DNA of 64,000 nucleotides from Gamaleyavirus NAN33P5, in the sequence record OZ035750.1; one strand, given 5' to 3'. Below, one piece after another: positions 2,056-50,354 of this stretch. Every line of letters starts with the position of its first letter. Position 1 is the stretch's first letter. The translations under genes and the position numbers were made by a program. The notes beneath the pieces are model-generated. The model saw only the letters and a list, made by a program, of their open reading frames with translations. It had not been told where the DNA came from and did not search any database.

Positions 2056-3276
2056 ATGACTACGGAAGCTGCAACCACAGCTTCCGACATTCTCGCAATG
2101 TCGGATGATGAGATTCTGAATATGGAAGCCCCAGCAGTTATCGCTGAGGAAGAAACTTCCACTCAGAACAACCCTGAAACCAACGGCGTACAGACTCCTG
2201 AAGAAGAAGTTTACACCCCTGCTGTTGAAGACCTACCAACCGAAGAAACCTCCCCCGAAGCCGAACCAGATGAAGAAGATTCAGCAAATACTTTAACTTC
2301 TGATAAAGTTGATGATAAAGTTGTTGACACAGAAGTTGATAGTAACGGTGAGCCGATTACTAAAGCTGAACCTTCTACTACTGAACCAGGCCAGGAACAG
2401 AAAGAAGAAGGCAAACAGTCTGAAGGTCTGCCTGCTGACTTCAACTATAAGGAAGGTTACGAGAAGTTGATGGCTCCTTTTAAAGCTAACGGCAAAATGA
2501 TTACTCCCCGTTCACCGGAGGAGGCCATTAGCCTGATGCAGATGGGTGCTAACTATACTCGTAAGATGCAAGAACTACAGCCTTACCGTAAGGTAATGTT
2601 GATGTTACAGAACAACGGTTTGATGGATGAGGATAAACTTTCTTTCCTGATTGATCTGGATAAAAAGAATCCTGAAGCCATTAAGAAGTTGCTCAAAGAC
2701 TCTGGTACAGACCCTCTGGACTTTAACCCAGATGAGGAAATTAACTACCAGGGTGGCAATCACCGTGTTACCGACACCGAAGCAGATTTTGCAACCGAAA
2801 TTGACGACTTAAAGTCTACTCAAGAAGGACAAGCTACATTAGGTGTTATTAGTTCGACATGGGATGCTGTCAGTAAAGATGCTCTTTACCAGAATCGTGG
2901 GCTACTCCAGACTATTCACGAACAACGTGAGAATGGTATTTATGACACCATTGCAAACGAAGTGAATCGTCTTCAGATGTTAGGCCAGATTCCGGTTGGT
3001 ACTCCGTTCATTCAGGCTTATAACCACGTCGGTAACCTCCTTTCACAGCAAGGGGCATTTAACCGAGTGGCTAAGCCTGAACCGGTACAAGCAGTTAAAC
3101 CAGTGGTTCAGCCGGTAGTGCGTGTAGCACAACCTAAGCAGACCCTGGCTAACAGTGAGCAAGCTAAAGCAGCTTCCCTTAGTCGGGCTGCTACACGTAA
3201 AGCAACACCTATTGTAAACCCACTCGCTATGAGTGATGAAGATTTCGCTAAACTCCCAGTACCGGGTAGTCTTTAA
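2056..3276 (+). CDS. putative scaffolding/head-assembly protein
   Basis: 406 aa with acidic low-complexity N-terminal third (E/D/T/P rich) immediately upstream of the major capsid gene; GGAGA RBS before ATG 2056. Confidence 0.35.
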   Translation: MTTEAATTASDILAMSDDEILNMEAPAVIAEEETSTQNNPETNGVQTPEEEVYTPAVEDLPTEETSPEAEPDEEDSANTLTSDKVDDKVVDTEVDSNGEPITKAEPSTTEPGQEQKEEGKQSEGLPADFNYKEGYEKLMAPFKANGKMITPRSPEEAISLMQMGANYTRKMQELQPYRKVMLMLQNNGLMDEDKLSFLIDLDKKNPEAIKKLLKDSGTDPLDFNPDEEINYQGGNHRVTDTEADFATEIDDLKSTQEGQATLGVISSTWDAVSKDALYQNRGLLQTIHEQRENGIYDTIANEVNRLQMLGQIPVGTPFIQAYNHVGNLLSQQGAFNRVAKPEPVQAVKPVVQPVVRVAQPKQTLANSEQAKAASLSRAATRKATPIVNPLAMSDEDFAKLPVPGSL

Positions 3277-3292
3277 ACAGGAATAAGATGAT

Positions 3293-4495
3293 ATGTTAAA
3301 CTATAACGCTCCAGTTGACGGTCAGAAATCTAGCATTGATGGTGCTGGTTCCGACCAGATGAATACCTTTTACTGGCTGAAGAAAGCTATTATTCAGTCC
3401 CGCAAAGATCAGTACTTCATGCCACTGGCTAACACCATCAACATGCCGAAGAACTACGGTAAGACTGTTAAGGTGTATGAGTACGTTCCACTGCTTGATG
3501 ATAAGAACATCAACGACCAGGGTATTGATGCCAACGGTGCTACCATCGTTAATGGTAACCTGTATGGTTCGTCCAAAGACGTTGGTAACATCACCTCTAA
3601 ACTGCCTCTGCTGACAGAGAACGGTGGTCGTGTTAACCGTGTAGGCTTTACCCGTATTTCTCGCGAAGGTTCCATTCATAAGTTCGGTTTCTTCTACGAA
3701 TTTACCCAAGAGTCTCTGGACTTTGATTCTGATGACCAGCTGAAAGAACACCTGTCCCGTGAACTGATGAACGGTGCTGTACAGTTGACTGAAGCTGTTC
3801 TCCAGAAAGACCTGTTGGCTGCTGCTGGTACTGTACTGTATGCAGGTGCTGCTACCTCTGATGCTACCATCACTGGTGAAGGTTCTACCCCGTCCGTAGT
3901 TTCTTATAAGAACCTGATGCGTCTTGACCAGATTCTTACTGAGAACCGTACTCCGACTCAGACTACTATCATCACTGGTTCTAAACTTACTGATACCAAA
4001 GTACTTGGTGGTACTCGTGTAATGTACGTTGGTTCTGAACTGGTTCCTGAACTGAAAGCGATGAAAGACCTGTTCGGTAACAAAGCATTCATTGAGGTTC
4101 AGCACTATGCTGATGCTGGTACTCTGATGAATGGTGAAGTTGGTTGTATCGACAAGTTCCGTATTATCCAGGTTCCAGAGATGCTGCATTGGGCAGGTGC
4201 TGGTGCTCAAGTCTATTCTAACCCGGGTTACCGTTCTTCTATGGTTAGTGGTCAAGAACACTACGACGTATTCCCGATGCTGGTAGTTGGTGATGACTCC
4301 TTCTCTACCATTGGCTTCCAGACTGATGGTAAGTCTGTTAAGTTCTCCATCATGACTAAGATGCCTGGTCGAGAAACTGCTGACCGTAATGACCCGTATG
4401 GCGAGACTGGTTTCAGTTCCATCAAGTGGTACTACGGTATTCTGGTTAAACGCCCAGAACGTCTGGCTCTGATTAAGACTGTTGCTCCTCTGTAA
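3293..4495 (+). CDS. major capsid protein
   Basis: 400-aa ORF followed by a strong GC hairpin; position between portal/scaffold-like genes and downstream virion genes; N4-like synteny. Confidence 0.6.
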
Positions 4496-4511
4496 TAGTC
4501 CTAAATAAAGT

Positions 4512-4531
4512 AAGGGGGACTTATGTCCCCC
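4512..4531 (+). terminator. GC-rich hairpin downstream of capsid gene (attenuator-like, weak T tract)
   Basis: AGGGGGAC-TTAT-GTCCCCCT perfect 8-bp stem directly after the capsid stop codon. Confidence 0.3.
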
Positions 4532-4562
4532 TCTTAACAAAACAAAATGAACCACAGGAAAT

Positions 4563-5204
4563 ATGAACATGAGCATTAACGATAAACCGACCACTGACGT
4601 AGAACTGGACGTACAGGGCAACGAAGATACCGTTAACGATATTGCAATGCCTAGCGAACTTGATGTTCTTAAGCAACGTGCAACGTTGATGAATATTAAG
4701 TTCTCTAACAACATCTCCGTTGAGAAGCTCCGTGAGAAGATTGAAGCTGCACAAGCAAAAGACGAACCAGAAGTAAAAGAATCTACTGTTAACCCTTTGG
4801 GTGAAAAACAAGAGGCAGGTGTTAAGAAAATGACTCTGGGTCAGAAGATTCGTGCAGAACAGACTCGACTGATTCGTGTACGTATCCAGAACCTTGACCC
4901 TAAGAAGAAAGATCTGCCGGGTGAAATTATCACCGTAGCTAACGAATATATGGGTACTGTACGTAAGTTTGTTCCATTCGGTGAAGTAACCGACAACGGT
5001 TATCATATTCCGTATTGTATTTATGAGTTCCTTAAAGAACGTAAGTTTGTCAATATTACGACTCGCAAAGGTAAGAATGGCTTACCGGATATCCGTGCAA
5101 CAGAAGCACGTGAGTTCTCCATTGAAGTATTGCCACCACTGACTGAAGCAGAATTGGCTCAACTGGCTCAAGCACAGATTGCTGCTGGTAGCCTGAACGA
5201 TTAA
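4563..5204 (+). CDS. hypothetical virion-module protein
   Basis: 213-aa ORF, AGGAAAT RBS-like sequence before ATG; same strand and operon context as capsid genes. Confidence 0.55.
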   Translation: MNMSINDKPTTDVELDVQGNEDTVNDIAMPSELDVLKQRATLMNIKFSNNISVEKLREKIEAAQAKDEPEVKESTVNPLGEKQEAGVKKMTLGQKIRAEQTRLIRVRIQNLDPKKKDLPGEIITVANEYMGTVRKFVPFGEVTDNGYHIPYCIYEFLKERKFVNITTRKGKNGLPDIRATEAREFSIEVLPPLTEAELAQLAQAQIAAGSLND

Positions 5205-5224
5205 CGTATAAGCTACAGTTCAAC

Positions 5225-5262
5225 ACGGCTCACTGGGGTAACTCCGTGGGCCGTTTCTTTTT
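5225..5262 (+). terminator. rho-independent terminator
   Basis: ACGGCTCAC...GTGGGCCGT stem followed by TTTCTTTTT. Confidence 0.5.
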
Positions 5263-5280
5263 GAACCAAGAGGAATGATT

Positions 5281-6117
5281 ATGTCTTGTTCTGCTGAGGT
5301 AGAAGCTAACCGACTCCTAGATGAGTTAACTAAGGGTGATGACTTTACCCTTCCTAATGTTGATATGTCTGGTCCTGAATGGGATATCCCTGGTGGAGAT
5401 AGCTCCCCAATCTTTGGTGCTATTACTAAAATAACAAACGAATCGCTTACTACCCGTGAAGTAGGTGGTAGTGGTACGTTTGATGCATTAATGGAATCTG
5501 CACACAATCACCTTAAAGCTGAGTATAAAGCTAACCGTATTACTGGTGGTGAATATACCAAGGCGTACATTGCTACGATGGAAGCCTGCATGAATAATGC
5601 TGTTCAGTTCTTACTTGGTCGTGACCAAGCATACTGGGCTGCTGCTATGGCACAGATTCAGGCAGTTACTGCACGTGTTGGTTTGGCAACGGCTAAAGCA
5701 CAGTTTGTACTTGCTAAGGCACAAGCACTGTCTACTAAATCTGAGTATGCCTTAACTAAGCTGAAACTCTCTAATGAGGGCCAGAATTACTGTGCTGCAA
5801 AGTTCAATGTGGATGAGATTCTTCCTGCACAGGAACGCTTATTACAAGAACAATACGAAGTACAGCGTGCACAAACCATGGAAACCCGTTCTGACTCTTT
5901 ACCAATCAAAGGTAGTATTGGTAAGCAGAAGGAGCTGTATGACCAACAGATTACTTCTTATCAACGTGATGCAGAAGTTAAAGCATCCAAACTATTTACC
6001 GATGCGTGGATTACACAGAAGACTATTGATGAGGGCTTGAATCCTCCTAATGGTTTCACTAACGCAAGTATTGATACCATTCTGTCCAAGCTGAAGTCTA
6101 ACAACGGGCTGAACTAA
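5281..6117 (+). CDS. hypothetical virion protein
   Basis: ORF 5275-6117; second in-frame ATG at 5281 has better spacing to GAGGA; 280 aa. Confidence 0.55.
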
Positions 6118-6118
6118 T

Positions 6119-8773
6119 ATGGGCTTATTCAGTGGGAAGACCAAAGTATACGTAGCATCCTCTGTCTATAACATGGCAGGGGATATACATAAGCGTCCAA
6201 ACTATATGAAGACTGTGGTTATTGGTAATATTGTTTTTAATACAGGATTCACTATGGCAGACACTATCTCCGATAGTTATCTGAACGGACCTGGTATTCG
6301 TATGCGACTGTTCTCCAGCTGGAGTAAGAACCACTATGATTCAGAAGTTGGTATGGCAGGTTCTTCATTGGGTGTACTGGCTAAGATTGACCCTACTGTT
6401 ATAGAGGGTCAAATTACCCCACCTGCTGGAGAATCAGTCTATGTTCAGGCAGCAGAGATTGGCTTTGCTGACTTTGAGCAATGGTGTGACCAGTATCTTT
6501 ATGAGAATGCCCCAAGTCGTATCATGGAACGATTCGACGTAGACATTGATGAAGATACTAATGAAATTACTATGACTTCCCTGGATGGAGGTTCTACCAT
6601 TACATTCACACCTACTAATTTTGAACCAGGTGCTTTGTATCTCTATGCTGATTACACATTCTATAAGTCCCCGACTACTAATCCACCTGTAGTAGGACCG
6701 ACTACTGTCTATGATGGTGAGGATGACTTACCATCTACTTTGTTGTGGACTACCATCTCAAGCGATACGACAGCTAATACAGCCAATCTTACCAAGACTA
6801 TACAGACTCATTCTGTTTACTCTGATGGTAGGCCAGATGAAGACAGTACTGTTACTGAACCAAGTGTAGATAACTGGAACTCTTACGTTAAGGTTTACCG
6901 TAGAGGATTTACTGAGAAGCCTGATGATGTAACTGTAGTTGTATCTGACAGGGTAATGACTCATACAAAGTTTGGTGAGATTCAATCCAATACTACTGTA
7001 ACTACCAATGTAGTTGATTTAGGCGGTGGTGTTACTCGCACTGACACAATCACCACAATTACAGAGACACTGGTTCGTAAATACTCATCTCAGATTACTC
7101 GTACTGATACTGAGATGGCTGCTGTTAGTACACCTAAGCTGCTTATCTATAAGCATAATTCTGGCAACGCTGTACTTGACTCCCTATTTGAGACTGAAGC
7201 TACTGATAACCGATTCTATCCATTCATTCCAATCAGGAATGATAAACAATGGGTAGAGTATGACCCAATTTACCCCCACTGTAAGAAGGCACTCTATAAA
7301 GCTACTGGTGGTAAGCTTAATAAAGTAATGACGGAGCTTAAGAAGAATAAGGACATAGGTGATATTCAGTACATTTATGGCACATTCGGTGTATCCCTTA
7401 ATACTCCAGAGGATACTGCTAAGGAATATATCTACCGTTTCTTTCAGATGGCTACTGAAGCATTCCCACCAGACCCAACTTACCCTACGCTGGAATCGGT
7501 AATTGCAGGTTATCAGGCAGCAAATGATGCAGTCGATGCATACGTAAAATGGTGGAACAGGCAGGAAGGTCTTATTGTTGGAACACCACCCCCCTTGCCG
7601 GAATATCCTGTCATACCTAAGCGAGAGTTTAGGGTGCATAGTAGTAAGCATTATAAGTATGACATGACCATCCGTTGGAATTATGTATCTGAAACTACAC
7701 ATTCTGGTAAAGCATGGGCAGGTGCTAAACAAGGACAACTTCGAGCCAGGTATGCAGGGGATATAACTCTTACACGCAAGAACATACGTACAGCTAGTAA
7801 CTCTGGTTCAACCAAAAGATTGGAAGTTATCCCTACGTTTTACTCTATGCAGGAATATGAGTTGCTTTGGCAAGATGGTAGTAACACCTATCGTAAACTT
7901 AGGGTACTTGGTCTACATCACAGCAACAGGGTGTATAAAAACAAGTCAGTAAACATTGATGTTGCTGAAGCAATGGGTGATGCAGAAGAGAGTGGATTCA
8001 TTATCCCACTGCACACTAACATCTACCGTTCAATGTCACTGACTCGTAGTACTCAGCTGTCTACTGCTTGTTCCTACTTAGTAATGAACTCATATAAGAA
8101 GGTTAAGAAGAAGTGGTATCAAACTTCTGCCTTTAAGATTGTGGTTGTTGTAGTTGCTGTCGTTGTATCTGTATTCACTATGGGTGCTGGTGGTGTAGGT
8201 ATACTTGGGGCTTATGGTGCAGTTGGTGCATCACTCGGTTTTGTTGGATTAGCTGCTGCAATAGTAGGTGCTGTAGCAAACGCCATTGCTGCAATGATTA
8301 TGATATCTATTGTCACTAAAGTATCTACTTCACTGTTTGGTGATAAGCTAGGTTTTATCATCGCTGCTGTTGCTTCAATGGTAGCTATGAATGTTGGTAC
8401 TGCTCTATCTACTGGTACATCCTTATCTACCTTAGCCAGCGAAATGATGAATGCCCAAAACATCATGCAGCTCACCAGTTCAGTAGGTAACGGTATTAGC
8501 CAGTATATTAATGCATCTACGGCTGCTACTATTCAGAAAGCAGAGAGTGTAATGCAGAAGTACAATACCGATATGATGGCAATCAATAAGCAGTATGAAG
8601 AAATGTTTGGTACTGCTGGACAGGGTGTAATTGACCCTATGCAATTCGTGTCAATGGAGTCGATGGATTCTTTCCTCTCACGTACTCTTATGACTGGTTC
8701 AGATATAGCTGATATGTCTCTAAACATGATTGGCAGCTACACTGATATGACTCTTAATACTGACCTTGTTTAA
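6119..8773 (+). CDS. large virion protein with C-terminal hydrophobic Gly/Ala/Val-rich segment
   Basis: 884-aa ORF; C-terminal ~100 aa is a run of V/A/G/I (IVVVVVAVVVSVFTMGAGGVGILGAYGAVGASLGFVGLAAAIVGAVANAIAAMIMISIV) predicted to be membrane-spanning. Confidence 0.55.
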   Translation: MGLFSGKTKVYVASSVYNMAGDIHKRPNYMKTVVIGNIVFNTGFTMADTISDSYLNGPGIRMRLFSSWSKNHYDSEVGMAGSSLGVLAKIDPTVIEGQITPPAGESVYVQAAEIGFADFEQWCDQYLYENAPSRIMERFDVDIDEDTNEITMTSLDGGSTITFTPTNFEPGALYLYADYTFYKSPTTNPPVVGPTTVYDGEDDLPSTLLWTTISSDTTANTANLTKTIQTHSVYSDGRPDEDSTVTEPSVDNWNSYVKVYRRGFTEKPDDVTVVVSDRVMTHTKFGEIQSNTTVTTNVVDLGGGVTRTDTITTITETLVRKYSSQITRTDTEMAAVSTPKLLIYKHNSGNAVLDSLFETEATDNRFYPFIPIRNDKQWVEYDPIYPHCKKALYKATGGKLNKVMTELKKNKDIGDIQYIYGTFGVSLNTPEDTAKEYIYRFFQMATEAFPPDPTYPTLESVIAGYQAANDAVDAYVKWWNRQEGLIVGTPPPLPEYPVIPKREFRVHSSKHYKYDMTIRWNYVSETTHSGKAWAGAKQGQLRARYAGDITLTRKNIRTASNSGSTKRLEVIPTFYSMQEYELLWQDGSNTYRKLRVLGLHHSNRVYKNKSVNIDVAEAMGDAEESGFIIPLHTNIYRSMSLTRSTQLSTACSYLVMNSYKKVKKKWYQTSAFKIVVVVVAVVVSVFTMGAGGVGILGAYGAVGASLGFVGLAAAIVGAVANAIAAMIMISIVTKVSTSLFGDKLGFIIAAVASMVAMNVGTALSTGTSLSTLASEMMNAQNIMQLTSSVGNGISQYINASTAATIQKAESVMQKYNTDMMAINKQYEEMFGTAGQGVIDPMQFVSMESMDSFLSRTLMTGSDIADMSLNMIGSYTDMTLNTDLV

Positions 8774-8786
8774 CAGGAGAATCCTT

Positions 8787-9230
8787 ATGGATTTGTCATT
8801 CTTAACAGGCAACCAAGCCCCTCAGCCAGGAGCTATGTCTTGGATGCCTAATAACAATCAGAACTTTAATACCCCAGCTATGAACTATATCCCCGGTGCA
8901 ACTATTGGTATGAATGCAGGTATAGGAGTAGCCTCCCCTACTTCTTTCTTGTCTGGTTCAGCTAATCAGTTGGGTATGAACGTACCTACCTTCCAGCTAG
9001 GGCTTGGTGCACTTGGTTCCTTAGCTGGTATCTATAGTGGTTTTCAGGCCAACAAGTTAGCCAAAGACCAGTTGAACTTCACTAAGAGTGTTACTAACAC
9101 TAACCTGAATAACCAGATTAAGTCTTATAACACTGCACTGGAAGACCGTGCTCGCAGTCGTGCTACAGCAGAGAATCGTGACCAGTCTTCGGCTGATGCT
9201 TACATTGCAGCTAATAAACTAACTCGTTAA
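8787..9230 (+). CDS. hypothetical virion protein
   Basis: ORF 8766-9230; ATG at 8787 preceded by AGGAGA; 147 aa from that start. Confidence 0.5.
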   Translation: MDLSFLTGNQAPQPGAMSWMPNNNQNFNTPAMNYIPGATIGMNAGIGVASPTSFLSGSANQLGMNVPTFQLGLGALGSLAGIYSGFQANKLAKDQLNFTKSVTNTNLNNQIKSYNTALEDRARSRATAENRDQSSADAYIAANKLTR

Positions 9231-9242
9231 TAGGAAACCATC

Positions 9243-11207
9243 ATGGCTCAGATAACGTGGAGAAATGTTGATGCACCTAACTTCTCTGGAGTTGGTGACA
9301 GCATTCGCACATTTGGCAGCATGATTGGTAACGCCACCTCCGGCTTAAGTGATGCACTGGGTAATTTCCAGAACGCTGCCAAGCAGGAGGCTGGCAATGC
9401 CGTCATGATGAATGCTATGCAGTATCAGGACCCGAATGAATACCGTAATGCTTTGGCATCCGGTGCTCTGTTTCAGGGGGTTGACCCTTCACTGGTAAAC
9501 CAGCGTACTCTTCAGAATCTGGATGAGCGAGCAGGTACATTACTGACTCAACAAGGACAGCAGGGAACCAATGACTACATTGCATATCGCTTTGGACGTT
9601 TACAGGATACTAACACTGCATTAGATAATGCTTCCCCTGCTATTCGTTTACTGTCTGAGGCTTATCAGTCGGGTGACCAGAATCGTATTAATGCTGCATT
9701 AAGTCAGACCCGTGATGCATTGTCTGCACTCCCTGCTGACCAACAACTGGAGATGATGGGTAGTCTTCAAGGTCAGGGCAGTCAGGCTATTAATCAGGCA
9801 CAGAACCGTTTTGATTTGGGTGTGGCTCAACGTAATGATGCTGATAGTCAGGCAGCTATGGGTGTAATGTCACAGATTACCCGTGGTGCTGAGAACCCAA
9901 ATGATGCCCGTCTGTTGGCAGAAGCATATAGTAAGAACCTGTCCCCAGTTGCACAGGCACGTTTGCAGGGATTACTGGCTAATGCTTACCCAGGTGTTTA
10001 CGGTAATGGTGTAGGTGCTGCATCTGCTCCGGGTACTGCTGGTACACGGCAGGGTTCGCCTTATGATGTTACTTACCAGTTTGCTGGTACATCTACTCCT
10101 ATTACTCAAATGAGTATTGGTGATGTAATTAAACACCAGGATGGTATGAAATCGAACCAGGGTGCTTCACCTGTTGGTGCATTCCAGATTAACCAAGCTA
10201 CTCTGAAAGACTTCGCTCCCAAAGTTCTTGGTTCAGATTGGCAAAGCCAGCCTCTTTCTCCTGAGAACCAGGATAAGATTGGTAAGGCTATCTTTGAGTC
10301 TCGTAAGAATGGTAACCTTAAAGATACCTGGGCTGCTCTGCCTAACTCTACCCCAGGTGCTTATAAGGATATGACATGGGAAGAGGTTAAACCTGTTATT
10401 GCCCAAGCTGAAGTAGGGGCTGACCCACTTGCTATGGTTCAGAATAATCAGGGCAATCAGGCAGTATCTACTCTGGCTCAGGGTATGATTGGTACACGTT
10501 CTATGCAGGATAACACCGGTAGTCTTAATACTGACTTCCTCGGTACTGTCACTGATAATACCCCAGTGGGTGATATTGCTAACCGTCTGTTGGAGGGTGA
10601 TTTTAAAGGTGCTGACCGTAACTGGGTACTGAACCGGCTGAACGATATTTCTCAGCGTGGAAATATGTCACCAGCTATGGCTGCTGCTGTTATGCAACGT
10701 GCACAGACTGGAGTACCTGAGGGTTATATTGGTCGTGCTATTGATGCAGTTAACCCATTCATTACCAATGAAGCCGGTAATGGTATGCGTCTTAATGACC
10801 GTCAGGTAGAACAGTTAATTGAAGGTGTAAAACGGGGGGAGCCACTGGAAGGTAGTGTTCGTAACCTAGGTCGTGCTCAGGCTATGCAGAACATTCAGGC
10901 AGCACAGACTGCATATGATGCTGCCGTAGCTGCACTGGCAAATACCCAGAATAAGATTAACACCGGACAAAGTGGTCTTACTGCACTGTTACCTGCACGT
11001 CAGGAGGCTGTTACTAAAGCTGCTGCAATGCTCCAAGCTGCACAGGCACAAGTACAGGCTGACCCAGCTAACCTGGCTCCAAGGGGTTTCCAGTCACAGG
11101 CTAGTGTAGATAGAGCACGAGCTAAGGAAGATGAAGAACGTGCTGCACGGTACTTACGTCAGGCACAAGGACTGCCTGAGTATATGCAACCAAGGCAAAA
11201 TCGGTAA
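9243..11207 (+). CDS. hypothetical virion protein (Q/A/N-rich)
   Basis: 654-aa ORF immediately upstream of the giant RNAP gene; followed by terminator. Confidence 0.55.
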   Translation: MAQITWRNVDAPNFSGVGDSIRTFGSMIGNATSGLSDALGNFQNAAKQEAGNAVMMNAMQYQDPNEYRNALASGALFQGVDPSLVNQRTLQNLDERAGTLLTQQGQQGTNDYIAYRFGRLQDTNTALDNASPAIRLLSEAYQSGDQNRINAALSQTRDALSALPADQQLEMMGSLQGQGSQAINQAQNRFDLGVAQRNDADSQAAMGVMSQITRGAENPNDARLLAEAYSKNLSPVAQARLQGLLANAYPGVYGNGVGAASAPGTAGTRQGSPYDVTYQFAGTSTPITQMSIGDVIKHQDGMKSNQGASPVGAFQINQATLKDFAPKVLGSDWQSQPLSPENQDKIGKAIFESRKNGNLKDTWAALPNSTPGAYKDMTWEEVKPVIAQAEVGADPLAMVQNNQGNQAVSTLAQGMIGTRSMQDNTGSLNTDFLGTVTDNTPVGDIANRLLEGDFKGADRNWVLNRLNDISQRGNMSPAMAAAVMQRAQTGVPEGYIGRAIDAVNPFITNEAGNGMRLNDRQVEQLIEGVKRGEPLEGSVRNLGRAQAMQNIQAAQTAYDAAVAALANTQNKINTGQSGLTALLPARQEAVTKAAAMLQAAQAQVQADPANLAPRGFQSQASVDRARAKEDEERAARYLRQAQGLPEYMQPRQNR

Positions 11208-45865: not shown

Positions 45866-46372
45866 TTATTTTGAAGGTCTAGCAGCTACTGGTTTGTTTT
45901 CCTGGTTATTGTACTTGCCAGTATATGTGGCAGGTTCTTGAACCAGATGAAATAATACTTGAGCTATCCCAGCACCAGCCGGGATATGCAGCTTCTTACG
46001 ACCATGATAGACCAGTTCGAGGGTAAGATACCCTTTCCATCCTGGTTCTATTACAGTATTAAATACAGATAATGCACGTCTTGCCCATGTGGATTTATCG
46101 TGAACGATAGCTACACAGGATGGAGACATGTTGAACTTCTCAATTGCTGAAGCCAATGCGAATTTACCGAAATGGCGTGATACTTGTTTTCCATCAACGA
46201 TTTTCACCATTGGAATCAACCCAAATAAGCGATAGAAGGTGATGTCTTGTTTGATACGAATATCATATCCAGCTTCGCCCAACCCATAGCTTACACCATG
46301 CTCGGATACCTTACGGTCTGGGACATCCAGCAATTGAGATGAACGGTATAGAGAATTACCATTAACAACCAT
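45866..46372 (-). CDS. dCTP deaminase / dUTPase-fold protein
   Basis: GYDIRI, IEPGWKGYLTLEL and GAGIAQ segments typical of the dCTP deaminase/dUTPase superfamily. Confidence 0.4.
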   Translation of the reverse strand: MVVNGNSLYRSSQLLDVPDRKVSEHGVSYGLGEAGYDIRIKQDITFYRLFGLIPMVKIVDGKQVSRHFGKFALASAIEKFNMSPSCVAIVHDKSTWARRALSVFNTVIEPGWKGYLTLELVYHGRKKLHIPAGAGIAQVLFHLVQEPATYTGKYNNQENKPVAARPSK

Positions 46373-47547
46373 TATTTCATTCCTTTAGGGATATGAACTA
46401 CCTCCCCAAAAGGTACGGTAGCATTAGGATTATTCAGAACACACCAGATGATAGGGATATCAAATGGTAATTCTTCCATAGGACGAACATACATATCGGA
46501 GAATATGATTGCAGCGGTTGGCTTATTCTTAATAATCCATTCACGCACTGGTTCAAGGTTTGTACCACCACGACCAGTAATCTTAATCTCTTCAAAAGTA
46601 TCTTCTTCAGTGATGTCCATCTCTTCTTGGATAATATCGTCGAAGGTAATTAAGGACATCTTCTTAGGATTGAACTGGCTCTTAACGTAGGCAACCTCTG
46701 AGTTAAAACGCAGAGAGTCAGCACTACTAATAGAACCAGATACATCCTCAAAGTAAGCTAAGTGTCGTAAGCGTCCTTCATCATCTTCCAGAGAAGGTAG
46801 ATAGATGTCAGTGAAACGACGGTTAGGTCTGGCCCATGTATAGTGTGAGTCATCAATGTCGGTAAAGAAGTTCAGTAGGACTTCCTGCCAAGGAACCACT
46901 GGTTTAAGGAATTGGGTAATAACCTCTTCCATACGACCAGCACCCTTACCAGGCATCATTCCACCAGCCATCTTCTGGCTTTGCATTGCACGTACTACGT
47001 TGTTGACAACAGCACCCTGGGACTGCCCCGAAGAGGGAGCTTTCATGTCGCCAGCAAGACCTGCTCCAGCACCCCCTGACGGCTTCTGCCTTTTCTGAGG
47101 GTTCTTCATCAGGTCATCGTAGATGTCTTCTTCAACCCATCCTTTATATTGAGGGTCTTTGCAAATGCCTTTATCGATACCAGTGAACTTGTAACCATCT
47201 TCCTCTAACTGAAGATTAATGAAGTGATCACATGCCTGGTTCCAGACTTCCGGGTCACGGCTTCCACAACGGATGCCATGGAGATATGCCACATGCCAGA
47301 GTTCGTGCATTAGTACTGTTTCTCTTGCATCGGGACACATCCAGACAAAGAAGTCTGGGTTGAAATGGAGTTCTATCCCATCAGTACATGCAGTGGGGCA
47401 GTCTTCACGTTTCCATGAGAACTTAAGACTACACAGCAATGAACCAAAAAATGCAGCAGAGCGTCCAAGGAATGCATTAGCCTGAATACGGTCATACTCA
47501 CGCATGAGTTGTTCATCACTAAGTGTGTGCTGAGGTATCTGGTTCAT
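46372..47547 (-). CDS. VWA-like protein with N-terminal HExxH metallopeptidase-like domain
   Basis: LMHELWHVAYLHG (HExxH) in N-terminal part; 391 aa immediately downstream of the AAA+ ATPase, the usual MoxR-partner arrangement. Confidence 0.4.
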   Translation of the reverse strand: MNQIPQHTLSDEQLMREYDRIQANAFLGRSAAFFGSLLCSLKFSWKREDCPTACTDGIELHFNPDFFVWMCPDARETVLMHELWHVAYLHGIRCGSRDPEVWNQACDHFINLQLEEDGYKFTGIDKGICKDPQYKGWVEEDIYDDLMKNPQKRQKPSGGAGAGLAGDMKAPSSGQSQGAVVNNVVRAMQSQKMAGGMMPGKGAGRMEEVITQFLKPVVPWQEVLLNFFTDIDDSHYTWARPNRRFTDIYLPSLEDDEGRLRHLAYFEDVSGSISSADSLRFNSEVAYVKSQFNPKKMSLITFDDIIQEEMDITEEDTFEEIKITGRGGTNLEPVREWIIKNKPTAAIIFSDMYVRPMEELPFDIPIIWCVLNNPNATVPFGEVVHIPKGMK

Positions 47548-47554
47548 GTTGTGA

Positions 47555-47959
47555 TTATCCGTGAATGTAACGAGAGATGTTGGCAGCAGCCTTACGCCAT
47601 TCAGGGGTAGCCTGAATTTCTGGTAATGCTTTACCTACTGTACGGAAGTACAGAATCTTATGGGTGAACGTTTTAAAGCGTTCAATATACTGAAGTACAT
47701 CAGCGAAGTTATCTTCAGTAGTCTTGTTAGCCAAATGGTTAACGGTAGCCCAACACAGGTTATTATCTTCCGGTAGTACACAGCCCAAAGGGTCTTTAAC
47801 TACCTTCTCAATCGTAATCATACGATTGTATACCTGAGTGAACTGAACAAATTCTGTAGCTTTACCGGCAGTAACGTGGCCTGCATAGTAGATAGAATCT
47901 TCATCAGGCAGAGCACCTTCCGGTCGGTTCTTAAGGTCTTTGTTAACAAAGTCCCAAGT
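47555..47959 (-). CDS. AAA+ ATPase, proposed exon 3
   Basis: ORF 47555-47983; frame stays open upstream to a stop at 48017; 5' boundary set 14 nt after the conserved TTGCGAACTA element (intron then ends in G), by analogy with intron 1. Confidence 0.45.
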   Translation of the reverse strand, partial: TWDFVNKDLKNRPEGALPDEDSIYYAGHVTAGKATEFVQFTQVYNRMITIEKVVKDPLGCVLPEDNNLCWATVNHLANKTTEDNFADVLQYIERFKTFTHKILYFRTVGKALPEIQATPEWRKAAANISRYIHG

Positions 47960-47964
47960 CGTGA

Positions 47965-48137
47965 TATTCGACGTAGTTCGCAAGACTACGCCCGTTCTCT
48001 TATGAACTGCTGCATGTCACCATGCAGACTAGACTATATCAACACCCTTAGCATTACCTGTAGGGTGGCTACCATTTCGAGCATCATTAGCTTATGCTCT
48101 ACTCCCTCCCGGGATAGTCGTTGGACATTTATGGAAG
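47965..48137 (-). repeat. conserved intron 3' element, copy A
   Basis: Shares TAGTTCGCAA, CTGCTGCATGTCACCATGCAGA, AGACTATATCAA, ACC(A/G)TTTCGAG and GATAGTCGTTTGG blocks with 49160-49350. Confidence 0.55.
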
Positions 48138-48713
48138 TCAGAAATTACGTTTACGTCTAGTATCCCCAATTGAGTCCAGATAGGCATCTACGGCTTTAGC
48201 AGCAGCTACCTCATCTTTAAACTGTTTGTAGAATACTACCTTGTAATTATCTTTAACCTTGGCTTCGTAATAAGTGTAAATTTTATCTTTATACTTACTA
48301 CGACGTATGTGCACATTATGGTACACAGACTTACCTGGTTTAGGGGCTAGCCCAGTTTTATGAGCATGGAGATTATTGTCTTGTGTGGTGCATGGTTCCA
48401 GGTTGTCTTCATGGTTATTCTCCTTATTACCATCTAAGTGGTTAACAGGATCACCATACTTAAAGCCTGGTTTAAATGCTGCACAAACGAGTTGATGAAT
48501 AGTTTTCTTATGGGTCTTCCCATCTTTGTACATAGAGGCATACAGATAGCCTAATCGGTTCTTGTTAAGTGCCCTGATAAGGGGCTTAACTTCTCTGTAC
48601 TTATTTACAGATTGGCGTGACTCATGCTTACGGTATTTACCTGTATTAGATACTTGGTATAAACCTTCAAATTCAACAACATCTTTCCAAATCTCACTCA
48701 TGCTGACTCCCAA
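48138..48713 (-). CDS. HNH homing endonuclease (intron-encoded)
   Basis: N-terminal EIWKDVVEFEGLYQVSNTGKY (NUMOD4-like) and HQLVCAAF...NHLDGNKENNHEDNLEPCTTQDN HNH core; 191 aa. Confidence 0.7.
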   Translation of the reverse strand: MGVSMSEIWKDVVEFEGLYQVSNTGKYRKHESRQSVNKYREVKPLIRALNKNRLGYLYASMYKDGKTHKKTIHQLVCAAFKPGFKYGDPVNHLDGNKENNHEDNLEPCTTQDNNLHAHKTGLAPKPGKSVYHNVHIRRSKYKDKIYTYYEAKVKDNYKVVFYKQFKDEVAAAKAVDAYLDSIGDTRRKRNF

Positions 48714-48804
48714 TTTAGTAACGGATTGACTTTTACATATTACCTTTAGGCAACAGAAAGTAAAGTGTTTCCCGTTTTAGGCAGCTTTAGACAGGGAATT
48801 ACTC

Positions 48805-49158
48805 CCCTGAATCGCAGTGTGTTTACGAGGACAACAGAATGTCTTGTTCTTATGGGCAGGGTCGAAGTCGTGCAGATAGCCAGGGTTAGCATGTAAGAAT
48901 GCAACCAGACGCTCATCCCATTCTTGTGGAATCATTACGTCTTCAACAAAGATGTCGAAGTTAAGTTCCATTTCGAAGTGGACAACACGAGACTGCATTG
49001 CAGTACCCAGTGGGTTAACGATGGCTCGGTCAGTAGCTTTGTTACCGGCACAGATAATCATCACATTAGGGTGAAGTTTTTTCTGTCCAGTCATACGGTC
49101 TAGAATCAGTTTGTATGCAGCAGCTACTACTTCTTTCTTAGCTGAGTTGAATTCGTCG
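48805..49158 (-). CDS. AAA+ ATPase, proposed exon 2
   Basis: Frame open from 49157 (DEFNSAKKEVV...) with in-frame stop just upstream; completes Walker B (LLFL+DEF) and supplies sensor-1-like NVMIICAGN; 3' end uncertain. Confidence 0.5.
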
Positions 49159-49159
49159 C

Positions 49160-49350
49160 ATTATCTTCACATTAGTTCGCAACTACTAATGCCGTCAGTA
49201 CACTCAGTGAATACTGACTGCTGCATGTCACCATGCAGAGGAGACTATATCAAAGCCCTATTGCTAGGGCTGTTACCGTTTCGAGTGCCATTGGCTTGCA
49301 CCCTACTCTACTCACTTCCACATTTCTGTGTGTTTTCGATAGTCGTTTGG
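49160..49350 (-). repeat. conserved intron 3' element, copy B
   Basis: Same conserved blocks as 47965-48137, in the same order. Confidence 0.55.
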
Positions 49351-49353
49351 CGT

Positions 49354-49923
49354 TTAAATGAAATTGGTACTGTACCCAATCTGTGTAAGATTGTTGTTAG
49401 TTACGTAGGAGTCATAGGCTTTGGCAGCCTCTTCCTCTGTTTTGTAACGTCCCAAACCAATAGATTTCTTGTTAACCCTTATATGGGCACACCATCTTTG
49501 TCTTTGCTCACTCCAGGATACACCTACGTATTTGGAGGAGCCTCCACGATTTTTGTTACTAGCGTTGGCATGTCTGTTTGACAATAATCCAGTATCCCAA
49601 GCATGTTTAATATTTTGGGACTGGGTACACCATTCCAGGTTACTCTCGTGGTTATTAAGAGGGTTTCCATCTATATGATTAATAACTGGATAGTTATTGG
49701 GGTTTGGTACAAAGGCTATGCCTACCAGACGATGAACTTGATATTTGTACACTTTACTATTCATGTACAGGTTCACGCAGTAGTACCCTTTGTTATTAAG
49801 ATACGGTTTTATATGTGTCCTATTTTTGTATTTATACTTTCCTTCTTTTCGGCGTACTACACCAAAGTTGGAAACTTCATACGGTAAGTCGGGCACATCT
49901 TTCCAAATTTCATTATTTAGCAC
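49354..49923 (-). CDS. HNH homing endonuclease with AP2-like domain (intron-encoded)
   Basis: EIWKDVPDLPYEVSNFGVV, HRLVGIAFVPNP...NHIDGNPLNNHESNLEWCTQSQN HNH core, C-terminal YVGVSWSEQRQRWCAHI...YKTEEEAAKAYD AP2-like; 189 aa. Confidence 0.75.
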   Translation of the reverse strand: MLNNEIWKDVPDLPYEVSNFGVVRRKEGKYKYKNRTHIKPYLNNKGYYCVNLYMNSKVYKYQVHRLVGIAFVPNPNNYPVINHIDGNPLNNHESNLEWCTQSQNIKHAWDTGLLSNRHANASNKNRGGSSKYVGVSWSEQRQRWCAHIRVNKKSIGLGRYKTEEEAAKAYDSYVTNNNLTQIGYSTNFI

Positions 49924-50040
49924 AGGATTGTCTCCAATTGATTAAAACTCAAGTATACACCTGAGCCAACCATATTAGAAGAGGTTCCCTGTTTAGGTAA
50001 CTTTCGACATGAGATTGCTCTCATGAAGCCCCGTCAGTTA

Positions 50041-50354
50041 AGGAACAAGAGCCAGCCATTATAACCTTCTGGTACTTCGTCACCCTCGATAGGGAATAAG
50101 TCAGCGAAAGGGATAAACTCTGCACGATCACCATTACGGAATGGTAGACCAGACAAGTCTTCCGGGGCAGAAGTAGACAGACGATGGTCAATCAGCTTCA
50201 TGCCAAATTCTTCTGCAACAGAACGAATAATTGCAGACTTACCCATGCCAGGTGATGAAGTCAGGAACGGTACGTTACCTGCTTGCAAGGCACGGATAAT
50301 AAAGTTACGGGCTTGGCGTGTATTACATACAGTCAAGGAGTCAATGCTCGCCAT
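50041..50354 (-). CDS. AAA+ ATPase (MoxR-like), exon 1
   Basis: Walker A SSPGMGKSAI; ORF ends ...YNGWLLFLN-stop exactly where a Walker B hhhhDE is expected. Confidence 0.6.

Follow-up and report, generated by a model that had tools for sequence, protein, structure and literature searches.

Two putative T4 td-like group I introns with HNH endonuclease genes in the AAA ATPase gene of a Gamaleyavirus-like phage

Introduction

Multiple group I introns in phage (T4, Twort nrdE) were reportedly described by Shub et al. in 1988 and by Landthaler and Shub in 1999. Three related introns, in td, nrdB, and nrdD, are present in T4 (PMC2988022), and two group I introns in nrdE of Staphylococcus phage Twort are cited in PMC3984707. 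The td intron belongs to group IA2 and encodes I-TevI, a GIY-YIG endonuclease, in an ORF that is looped from P6 with its 3' end entering the core (PMC2988022). The DNA polymerase gene of SPO1-type phages is interrupted by a group I intron carrying the HNH nicking endonuclease I-HmuI.

In the window analysed here, a 64-kb stretch of DNA, the minus-strand gp24-like AAA ATPase gene of a Gamaleyavirus-like (N4-like, Schitoviridae) coliphage is very probably interrupted by two self-splicing, T4 td-like group I introns (IA type, with P7.1 and P7.2), termed I1 and I2, which carry I-HmuI-like HNH homing endonuclease genes (HEGs) and belong to separate, old lineages. Such introns are an ordinary, well-known type of mobile element and give no reason to revise current views of group I introns. 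The placement of the ORF in I1 and I2 is as in td, but the host gene of td is thymidylate synthase rather than an AAA ATPase and its endonuclease is GIY-YIG rather than HNH. The SPO1-type intron likewise combines a group I intron with an HNH enzyme in an essential phage gene, but it differs in host phage, host gene, and ribozyme lineage, and its likeness to I1 is at the level of the HEG (1U3E). As described for Twort nrdE and the T4 trio, which concern other phages and genes, self-splicing introns with related cores would occur together in a single gene or genome.

Exons and splice junctions of the ATPase gene

The gene was divided as follows.

50041 to 50354, minus strand: exon 1; start codon ATG at 50354, ends ...GTTCCT, aligns to nt 1 to 314 of the uninterrupted SP5M gene
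49159 to 50040, minus strand: I1, td-like group I intron of 882 nt; begins TAACTGAC..., ends ...GAAGATAATG
48825 to 49158, minus strand: exon 2; starts CGACGAATTC, ends ...CCTCGT
47960 to 48824, minus strand: I2, td-like group I intron of 865 nt; begins AAACACAC..., ends ...GAATATCACG
47555 to 47959, minus strand: exon 3; starts ACTTGGGAC, stop codon at 47555 to 47557

Both insertions can be excised precisely. Removal of 49159 to 50040 and 47960 to 48824 produced a 1,053-nt ORF of 350 aa that is colinear with the uninterrupted ATPase of phage SP5M, is 98.6% identical to it, and matches Pfam AAA. The SP5M-type intron-less sites are TTCCTTGATGAG and CCTCGTACTTGG; the I1 site lies within the Walker B motif (LLFL|DE) and the I2 site at CPR|TW. 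For annotation, the three fragments called "ATPase" and the two genes called "HNH endonuclease" are to be merged into a single AAA ATPase gene that contains two mobile introns; the 350-aa protein would be the correct product of this essential-looking gene.

Read directly from the sequence, the last base of each 5' exon is U, which could pair with G in P1 as U.G, and that of each intron is G. In P1 of I2, TCGU|A pairs with UGCGA, and in P1 of I1, CCU|U pairs with GGGG; P10 pairing was weak in both. The omega-G of I2 is found at the intron end ...AUCACG. For I1, plain BLAST against the intron-less allele gave CTT|...GC|GAC, with C rather than G as the last intron base, and these boundaries (50040|50039 and 49158|49157) were rejected because of the terminal C that they imply. 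When both boundaries are moved by 1 nt, I1 ends in ...GAUAAUG, and CUU is replaced by CUC, both encoding Leu, without change to the coding. The shifted boundaries were preferred because they preserve both U(-1) and omega-G, fit td, and do not alter the protein; the new 3' end resembles the td terminus GAACAUAAUG, and the boundaries agree with the td 3' end GAACATAATG. The canonical boundaries of I1 appear consistent with td homology. Two further junctions for I1, LLFLNE and LLFLNDE, were rejected, as they destroy or alter Walker B and place A at position -1.

Group I architecture of the two insertions

Each intron would comprise a 5' ribozyme part (P1 to P6), an HNH ORF looped from P6, and a 3' ribozyme part (P6' to P9.2), with P7 as the predicted guanosine-binding helix and P9 capped by a GUGA tetraloop. 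The parts were assigned as follows.

49915 to 50040, minus strand: I1 5' ribozyme part; P1 guide GGGG, P2 CATGAGA-GCAA-TCTCATG, P3 5' strand GTTACC, block CCTAAACAGGGAACC (49983 to 49997), extended P5, P4' CCTGT
49354 to 49923, minus strand: HEG1, 189-aa HNH homing endonuclease ORF in the P6 loop of I1; GTG start inside P4', stop in J6/7
49159 to 49367, minus strand: I1 3' ribozyme part; P6', J6/7, P7, P7.1 (with the hairpin CACA-GAAA-TGTG), P7.2, P3' GGTAAC, P8, P7', P9 (49221 to 49238), P9.1, P9.2; omega-G at 49159
48702 to 48824, minus strand: I2 5' ribozyme part; P1 TCGT|A with TGCGA and U.G at the splice site, P2 CAGGGGA-GTAA-TTCCCTG, P3 5' strand GCTGCC, block CCTAAAACGGGAAAC (48767 to 48781), P5, P4' CCGTT
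Within 48702 to 48824, minus strand: P6 5' strand of I2, GGGAGTCAG, which holds the HEG2 ribosome-binding site
48138 to 48701, minus strand: HEG2, 187-aa HNH homing endonuclease ORF in the P6 loop of I2; ATG at 48701, stop TGA inside P6'
47960 to 48141, minus strand: I2 3' ribozyme part; P6', J6/7, P7, P7.1 (CCC-GGGA-GGG), P7.2, P3' GGTAGC, P8, P7', P9 (48010 to 48027), P9.1, P9.2; omega-G at 47960

On the basis of sequence and predicted pairing, we class both insertions as group I introns of the T4 td-like (IA) type, and in each the P6 loop holds an ORF for an I-HmuI-like HNH endonuclease. An earlier note on this DNA had placed the segments 47965 to 48137 and 49160 to 49350 in two introns with a common structured 3' element. 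This was borne out: the element is the td-like catalytic core, P7-P7.1-P7.2-P3'-P8-P7'-P9-P9.1-P9.2.

The td ribozyme could be aligned with I1 and I2 over its whole length. The P9 hairpin of td, CUGCAUG-GUGA-CAUGCAG, is identical to that of I1 and I2, as are GAUAUAGUCU (J8/7-P7'), the J6/7 sequence AAAUGCC-AACGACUAU, and the block CUAAACGGGGAAC. The 3' end of td is of the same type (GAACAUAAUG), and P7.1 and P7.2 are present. Overall ribozyme identity with td is about 57 to 60%, and the lengths of P2 and P5 differ. The IA-subgroup helices P7.1 and P7.2, whose role in group I classification is described in PMC3984707, form two hairpins between GACUAU and the P3' strand in I1 and I2 alike.

Secondary-structure prediction recovered P7.1, P7.2, P8, P9, P9.1, and P9.2 in single-sequence folds, with modest fold z-scores for the 3' elements alone (-1.6 and -2.2), and the pairing was backed by covariation among 37 non-redundant family members. 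In P7, P7.2, P8, P9, and P9.2 of the 3' element, 95.5% of cells were paired versus 28 to 41% with slid partners, and 21 of 30 pairs showed double changes. The covariation score was 0.579 versus 0.06 to 0.11, and none of 500 shuffles attained the observed values. All six pairs of P7.2 covaried. The family alignment was collected by an exact 23-mer in P9, in a scan that found 83 contigs, and conservation of P9 is uninformative because of this mode of collection.

In the 5' halves, P3 (6/6) and P4 (5/5) were paired in I1, I2, T4 td, and the introns of phages U1G, pYD6-A, and Pylas and the metagenomic locus L063, with four compensating sequences each. P2, P7, P8, and P9 showed full or near-full pairing in the same seven introns, the exceptions being td where misaligned by MAFFT and the end pair of P7 in L063. 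Since a regular-expression search for 5' halves recovered only 10 loci, the P3 and P4 covariation rests on 8 sequences. Between I1 and I2 themselves, compensatory changes were found in P2, P3, P4, P7.2, and P8. MAFFT misaligned P1, P6, P7.1, P9.1, and short-loop P7.2, and these helices were left out of the counts and assessed by visual inspection or from single-sequence folds.

Against Rfam RF00028, I2 scored 35.6 bits (E = 3e-6) and I1 scored 19.0 bits, neither reaching the gathering threshold of 50 bits. The low scores are explained by the model not tolerating a 570-nt ORF in P6, as seen in two controls: an ORF-less family member (L035) scored 70.6 bits, above the cut-off, and the ORF-bearing T4 td intron was undetected even at E < 0.01. 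I1 and I2 are a further case of RF00028 missing ORF-bearing phage introns, T4 td included.

These sub-threshold scores, the ambiguity of the I1 boundary under BLAST, and the RefSeq listing of the U1G pieces as separate "ATPase" CDSs would also fit one or both being decayed introns that have lost splicing, or a gene that free-standing endonuclease insertions broke up into three ORFs, the repeats then being regulatory hairpins associated with the endonucleases. We regard this as extremely improbable. All core helices from P1 to P9.2 are intact in I1 and I2, with compensatory changes relative to homologs, and both HEG ORFs are full length and lie between the P6 strands. The frame is restored exactly from undamaged exons (98.6% identical to the intact gene), and I1 is 95% conserved between two phages whose exon divergence is similar. 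Moreover, exon 1 breaks off within Walker B and exon 2 does not open with a start codon, so that no functional ATPase core would be left in separately translated polypeptides. As active group I introns, I1 and I2 would each fold in the transcript and self-excise through two guanosine-initiated transesterifications, and ligation at ...CCU|CGAC... (site 1, Walker B LLFL|DE) and ...CGU|ACU... (site 2, CPR|TW) would yield the 350-aa ATPase.

Repeated blocks shared by the introns

The following blocks are common to both introns.

47974 to 47983 and 49173 to 49182, minus strand: TAGTTCGCAA
48006 to 48048 and 49217 to 49259, minus strand: 43-nt repeat with 91% identity, containing ACTGCTGCATGTCACCATGCAGA and AGACTATATCAA
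48113 and 49338, minus strand: GATAGTCGTT
48767 to 48781 (I2, CCTAAAACGGGAAAC) and 49983 to 49997 (I1, CCTAAACAGGGAACC), minus strand: 5' block, J3/4-P4-J4/5

The blocks of the 3' segments were located where the earlier note had them and in the same order in both introns. The last is not identical in the two, GATAGTCGTTGG versus GATAGTCGTTTGG, which differ by a 1-nt indel. The 7-bp minus-strand hairpin was likewise found, but its loop is the 4-nt GTGA (GNRA) and not GTGAC. The 5' block CCTAAA(A)C(A)GGGAA proposed to be common to both introns is present in both and corresponds to J3/4-P4-J4/5. Pairwise alignment gave a mean column identity between I1 and I2 of 76% for the 3' segments and 76% for the 5' segments.

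The 22-nt minus-strand block CTGCATGGTGACATGCAGCAGT has two exact copies in the 64-kb window, with 0 expected by chance; the count stayed at two with up to 3 mismatches permitted, and 100 dinucleotide-preserving shuffles gave no match. No third copy was found in the whole window with the P9 motif at 3 mismatches or with Rfam at E < 0.1. All shared blocks are on the minus strand and none lies within exon sequence; the HEG ORFs are touched only by P6' and the start of J6/7, over their final codons or stop codon. Because the repeats lie outside the exons and contain the group I core, homology of exons, similarity of HEG coding sequence, and terminators were rejected as explanations. What the introns share is RNA structure, and not coding sequence of homologous exons.

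Homing endonuclease ORFs

HEG1 matched Pfam NUMOD4, HNH_3, and AP2, each above the cut-off, and HEG2 matched NUMOD4 and HNH_3 above the cut-off. HEG1 was similar to I-HmuI (PDB 1U3E) over residues 7 to 120 (E = 2e-12), and its ortholog in U1G is annotated "HNH homing endonuclease # Phage intron". The two proteins are 34% identical to each other. HEG2 is most closely related to the intron-encoded endonucleases of pYD6-A (48.7% identity) and Pylas (44.6%), with no relative above 49% amino acid identity in the phage collection. The exact HEG2 protein was found in only two public contigs, and the one listed locus has the same two-intron arrangement.

In mixed infections, the HEGs may nick or cut intron-less alleles, with repair then copying the intron in; such homing would account for a sporadic intron distribution. 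The start signals of the HEGs appear to be buried in ribozyme helices, in P6 for I2 and in P5/P4' for I1, so translation and ribozyme folding probably compete. Competition of this kind has been described for I-TevI in td.

Introns in the ATPase gene of other Schitoviridae

A search of other Schitoviridae, which the earlier note had suggested, found the same intron family in the ATPase gene of U1G, Pylas, and pYD6-A. In these and in the metagenomic locus L063, the host gene, intron family, and HNH type are the same as for I1 and I2. Neither SP5M nor any of about 100 other Gamaleyavirus records contained I1. Escherichia phage U1G carries it at the same site with 95.4% identity, which marks an ortholog already annotated there, and is without I2. 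I2 was not found in SP5M, U1G, or the approximately 100 related records; none of 50,697 phage records covered at least 80% of its length, and none exceeded 30% nucleotide coverage. Existing annotations of introns in this gene are "Phage intron" in U1G, "ATPase split by intron" in Pylas (Klebsiella), and a joined CDS in pYD6-A (Pseudoalteromonas). None of the U1G, Pylas, pYD6-A, and L063 records has two introns in the ATPase gene. The window thus holds an allele with two introns; annotations of this gene in three other Schitoviridae already showed one intron each.

Relationship between I1 and I2

I1 and I2 are homologous, as had been proposed, in that both belong to the T4 td-like group I family. 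The earlier note went further and suggested that one of the introns descends from the other, through duplication or homing to a second position in the gene, leaving a gene-specific paralogous pair. The occupancy of one gene by both introns would suit this origin, as would the td-like features that they have in common (J6/7 TAAA(T/C)GCC, P2 with a GNRA loop, and an identical 34 nt around P7'-P9), the NUMOD4 and HNH_3 domains of both HEGs, and their position in the same broad clade of a neighbour-joining tree of 3' halves. However, identity over the ORF-deleted ribozymes was 61% between I1 and I2, no nearer than either is to T4 td (59% for I1), whereas I2 was 66 to 71% identical to the introns of pYD6-A, Pylas, L063, and L035. 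The sister grouping of I1 and I2 received 1.4% bootstrap in simple neighbour-joining on short alignments, and the current data already point to different clades. By blastn, I1 and I2 matched with 68.9 bits, compared with 157 bits for I2 and pYD6-A and 135 bits for I2 and Pylas, and many metagenomic introns also scored higher with I2 than I1 did. The 34% identity of HEG1 and HEG2 compares with 45 to 49% for HEG2 and the HEGs of pYD6-A and Pylas. The architectures of P7.1 and P9.1 differ between I1 and I2, and U1G has I1 without I2. The identical P9 stretch is no sign of closeness between the two, because it is invariant across 83 unrelated viral contigs. The duplication claim is therefore unsupported, and we consider such an origin very unlikely. 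Instead, the sequences indicate that I1 and I2 are old, separate lineages of one family with no recent intragenic duplication, although an ancient transposition between the two sites may have occurred.

The best matches to I2, in both ribozyme and HEG, are pYD6-A and Pylas. The pYD6-A intron lies at CP|RT, which precedes the I2 site (PR|TW) by 3 nt, and the Pylas and L063 introns lie at AAA|YKL (aa 119/120), elsewhere than the I1 and I2 sites. Tentatively, and with some doubt, the ATPase gene could be a long-term home of one td-like intron and HNH lineage that moved among at least three nearby positions (AAA|YKL, CP|RT, and PR|TW) across subfamilies, with I1, in Walker B, belonging to another lineage that was acquired independently. 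In that case, the intron/HEG pair of I2 would be one not recorded before, and the introns of this gene together would offer a natural series for the retargeting of introns by HNH nicking endonucleases, including a one-codon "slide". Across Schitoviridae, insertions in the ATPase gene are now seen at four sites, of which two lie 3 nt from each other, and these could serve for the study of site choice by I-HmuI-like enzymes.

Two introns interrupt the ATPase gene

All genes of this part of the window lie on the minus strand. In a megablast comparison with 50,697 phage records, the 2.9-kb region was assigned to a Gamaleyavirus-like coliphage (Schitoviridae, Enquatrovirinae); about 100 relatives covered just 40% of it, as three pieces, and phage U1G covered 70%. 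The 'ATPase' gene of phage SP5M is uninterrupted (1053 nt), and alignment to it divided the window gene into three exons which, when joined, encode a 350-aa protein with 98.6% identity to the SP5M protein and a Pfam AAA match. The features are as follows:

50354-50041, minus: ATPase exon 1 (alignment to SP5M gene)
49159-50040, minus: intron 1 (I1)
49354-49923, minus: HEG1, endonuclease ORF in I1, 189 aa, GTG start within P4' and stop in J6/7; NUMOD4, HNH_3 and AP2 domains
49158-48825, minus: ATPase exon 2 (alignment to SP5M gene)
47960-48824, minus: intron 2 (I2), with canonical ends ...CCUCGU^AAACAC...AUCACG^ACUUGG (caret, splice site)
48138-48701, minus: HEG2, endonuclease ORF in I2, 187 aa from ATG; NUMOD4 and HNH_3 domains
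47959-47555, minus: ATPase exon 3 (alignment to SP5M gene)

Under plain BLAST boundaries the last base of I1 would be C. Moving both boundaries by one base gave ...GUUCCU^UAACUG...GAUAAUG^CGACGA, which retains the U at position -1 and the 3'-terminal G and agrees with the T4 td 3' terminus GAACAUAAUG. The resulting Leu codon change, CUU to CUC, is synonymous, and the Walker B LLFLDE motif is therefore kept. U1G has the same arrangement, and we read the putative I1 junction as CCU^...^CGACGA, one base off the BLAST boundaries. The exon bases adjoining this site (window 49152-49158) are CCT^TGATGAG in SP5M, which has no intron there, CCT^CGATGAG in U1G and CCT^CGACGAA in the window. Every allele difference next to the site is synonymous, a pattern that co-conversion or selection for endonuclease immunity would be expected to produce. 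At the I2 site the exon sequence is identical to the intron-less allele.

The shared blocks are the catalytic core of td-like group I introns

The earlier note had described identical blocks shared by 47965-48137 and 49160-49350. These were found in both segments in the same order, except that the last differs by a one-base indel between copies. With up to three mismatches allowed, the minus-strand 22-mer CTGCATGGTGACATGCAGCAGT has exactly two sites in the 64-kb window (48006-48027 and 49217-49238), and it matched in 0 of 100 dinucleotide-preserving shuffles. Pairwise alignment gave 76% column identity for the 3' segments and likewise 76% for the 5' segments. The proposed hairpin does have a 7-bp stem, but its loop is a GTGA tetraloop rather than GTGAC. 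Both segments are parts of introns, as had been claimed: excision of I1 and I2 restores the ATPase, and the segments are ribozyme core. No third intron was detectable in the window by a P9 motif search with three mismatches or by an Rfam search.

Eight ORF-deleted introns were aligned with MAFFT: I1, its U1G ortholog, I2, the annotated ATPase introns of Klebsiella phage Pylas and Pseudoalteromonas phage pYD6-A, the metagenomic ATPase intron L063, the metagenomic intron L035, and T4 td. The ribozyme was alignable throughout. Base pairing of P3 and P4 is complete in I1, U1G, I2, pYD6-A, Pylas, L063 and td, with compensating variants in both P3 (GCUGCC/GGUAGC, GUUACC/GGUAAC, GCUACU/AGUAGC and UCUAUC/GAUAGA) and P4 (AACGG/CCGUU, ACAGG/CCUGU, AACAG/CUGUU and ACGGG/CCCGU). 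Pairing in P2, P7, P8 and P9 is full or nearly so, the exceptions being MAFFT misalignment of td or the P7 end pair of L063. The 3' element is therefore P6'-J6/7-P7-P7.1-P7.2-P3'-P8-P7'-P9-P9.1-P9.2; the 5' block CCTAAA(A)C(A)GGGAA corresponds to J3/4-P4-J4/5. GNRA tetraloops cap P2 and P9, and with P7.1 and P7.2 present, I1 and I2 fall in the IA subgroup with td (criteria in PMC3984707). Judged from sequence, what the two segments share is the catalytic core of T4 td-like group I introns, two in number, with HNH homing endonucleases; splicing and endonuclease activity are predicted.

The Rfam group I model (RF00028) scored the insertions at 35.6 and 19.0 bits, both below the gathering score of 50, because of their 570-nt ORFs. 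T4 td was not detected by the same search at E<0.01, whereas L035, an ORF-less td-like relative of ~290 nt from a viral metagenome (9089-9390 of IMGVR_UViG_3300013939_000002), reached 70.6 bits, which shows that the model misses ORF-bearing phage introns.

A 23-mer around P9 is present in 83 IMG/VR viral contigs, and blastn with I1 or I2 matched, in the 3' core alone, hundreds of phage records, including T4-like, rV5-like, Campylobacter, Bacillus, Vibrio and Pseudomonas phages. RNAalifold, run on 37 non-redundant 3' halves aligned with MAFFT, recovered P7, P7.2, P8, P9 and P9.2. Cells were paired in 95.5% of cases, versus 28-41% with the 3' partners slid by 1-3 columns; double-sided changes occurred in 21 of 30 pairs, and the covariation score was 0.579 versus 0.06-0.11 for slid partners. 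None of 500 shuffles reached the observed values. Since the sequences were ascertained through P9, its invariance is uninformative either way. Folded singly, each 3' element gave the same hairpins, with modest z-scores (-1.6 and -2.2).

I1 and I2 are probably separate acquisitions

The earlier note had proposed a paralogous pair arising by duplication or homing within the gene, and the comparisons do not support this. ORF-deleted ribozyme identity is 61% between I1 and I2, 59% between I1 and T4 td, and 66-71% between I2 and pYD6-A, Pylas, L063 and L035. Of 500 bootstrap neighbour-joining trees, 1.4% contained a sister split of I1 and I2, and 45% contained one uniting I2 with pYD6-A, Pylas and L063; among the 36 neighbours of I2 in the alignment of 37 sequences, I1 ranks 19th. 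By blastn, I1-I2 scored 68.9 bits, I2-pYD6-A 157 and I2-Pylas 135, and the top non-orthologous matches of I1 were introns of other phages. HEG1 and HEG2 share 34% identity; HEG2 is 48.7% identical to the pYD6-A and 44.6% to the Pylas intron endonuclease. P7.1 and P9.1 are constructed differently in the two introns, P7.1 being of an 'AUCGAAA-hairpin-GAAG' type in I1, also seen in loci L037, L076 and L078, and of a short CCC-GNNA-GGG type in I2. U1G carries I1 without I2.

I1 and I2 are homologous but not close. An ancient transfer of an intron from one site to the other within the gene is conceivable for such a pair. The simplest reading is two separate acquisitions out of a large td-like phage intron pool, with I2 a probable member of a lineage resident in Schitoviridae ATPase genes.

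Pairs of family members also lie near each other in two further viral contigs. L039 has cores at ~6723 and ~9172. The copies in L068 (IMGVR_UViG_3300043122_000006), where ORF identities were judged by eye from translations, are:

~4780-5137: ORF-less copy, directly after a large-terminase-like ORF (3340-4779)
~5918-6310: second copy, splitting a portal-like ORF (5138-5917 and 6311-6967)

Four insertion positions in Schitoviridae ATPase genes

The search of other Schitoviridae suggested in the earlier note yielded family members in the ATPase genes of U1G, Pylas and pYD6-A, all already flagged in GenBank/RefSeq. The gene has four insertion positions:

LLFL^DE: I1 and U1G
AAA^YKL: Pylas and L063
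CP^RT: pYD6-A
PR^TW: I2, 3 nt downstream of the pYD6-A site

An N4-like Vibrio phage has a published group I intron in its td gene (PMC5746245), and Twort nrdE is cited within PMC3984707 as one phage gene with two group I introns. No record in the phage collection covered more than 30% of I2 by blastn. What is new here is I2 and the two-intron allele; the kind of element is thoroughly known.

Endonuclease ORFs and neighbouring genes

HEG1 and HEG2 each sit between the two P6 strands, and HEG1 matched the nicking homing endonuclease I-HmuI (PDB 1U3E; E=2e-12). As read from the sequence, the GGGAG ribosome-binding site in I2 is part of the P6 5' strand, and GGAG and the GTG start in I1 lie within P5'/P4'. 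In td, the end of the I-TevI ORF runs into core helices and translation competes with splicing (PMC2988022); by analogy, translation may compete with ribozyme folding in I1 and I2. Exact matches to the HEG2 protein turned up in just two public contigs; the sole place shown, within a Logan assembly of ERR12949720 (74 kb), shares the two-intron layout of the window. HEG2-like HNH endonucleases (38-40% identity) occur in the N4-like Escherichia phage Pollock (NC_027381, 11886-12455) and Vibrio phages phi 1 and pVco-5, and may mark further introns there.

Elsewhere in the window, two adjacent minus-strand tRNA genes (23361-23520) scored 62.4 and 42.5 bits with Rfam; ARAGORN called one tRNA-Ile (anticodon aat) and gave the other an odd 2-base anticodon loop. 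A tRNA-Sec model had a weak sub-threshold match at 23888-23963. Immediately downstream of the ATPase is a 391-aa gene (46372-47547, minus; SP5M locus 2607-3782; U1G locus 3488-4662), whose copy in the Logan contig has the VWA-like/metallopeptidase domains DUF2201_N and DUF2201. RefSeq names its SP5M ortholog 'HNH endonuclease', and the same space in U1G holds two shorter 'HNH endonuclease' CDSs (504 and 675 nt). This name looks like a mis-annotation, and the U1G gene is possibly frameshift-split.
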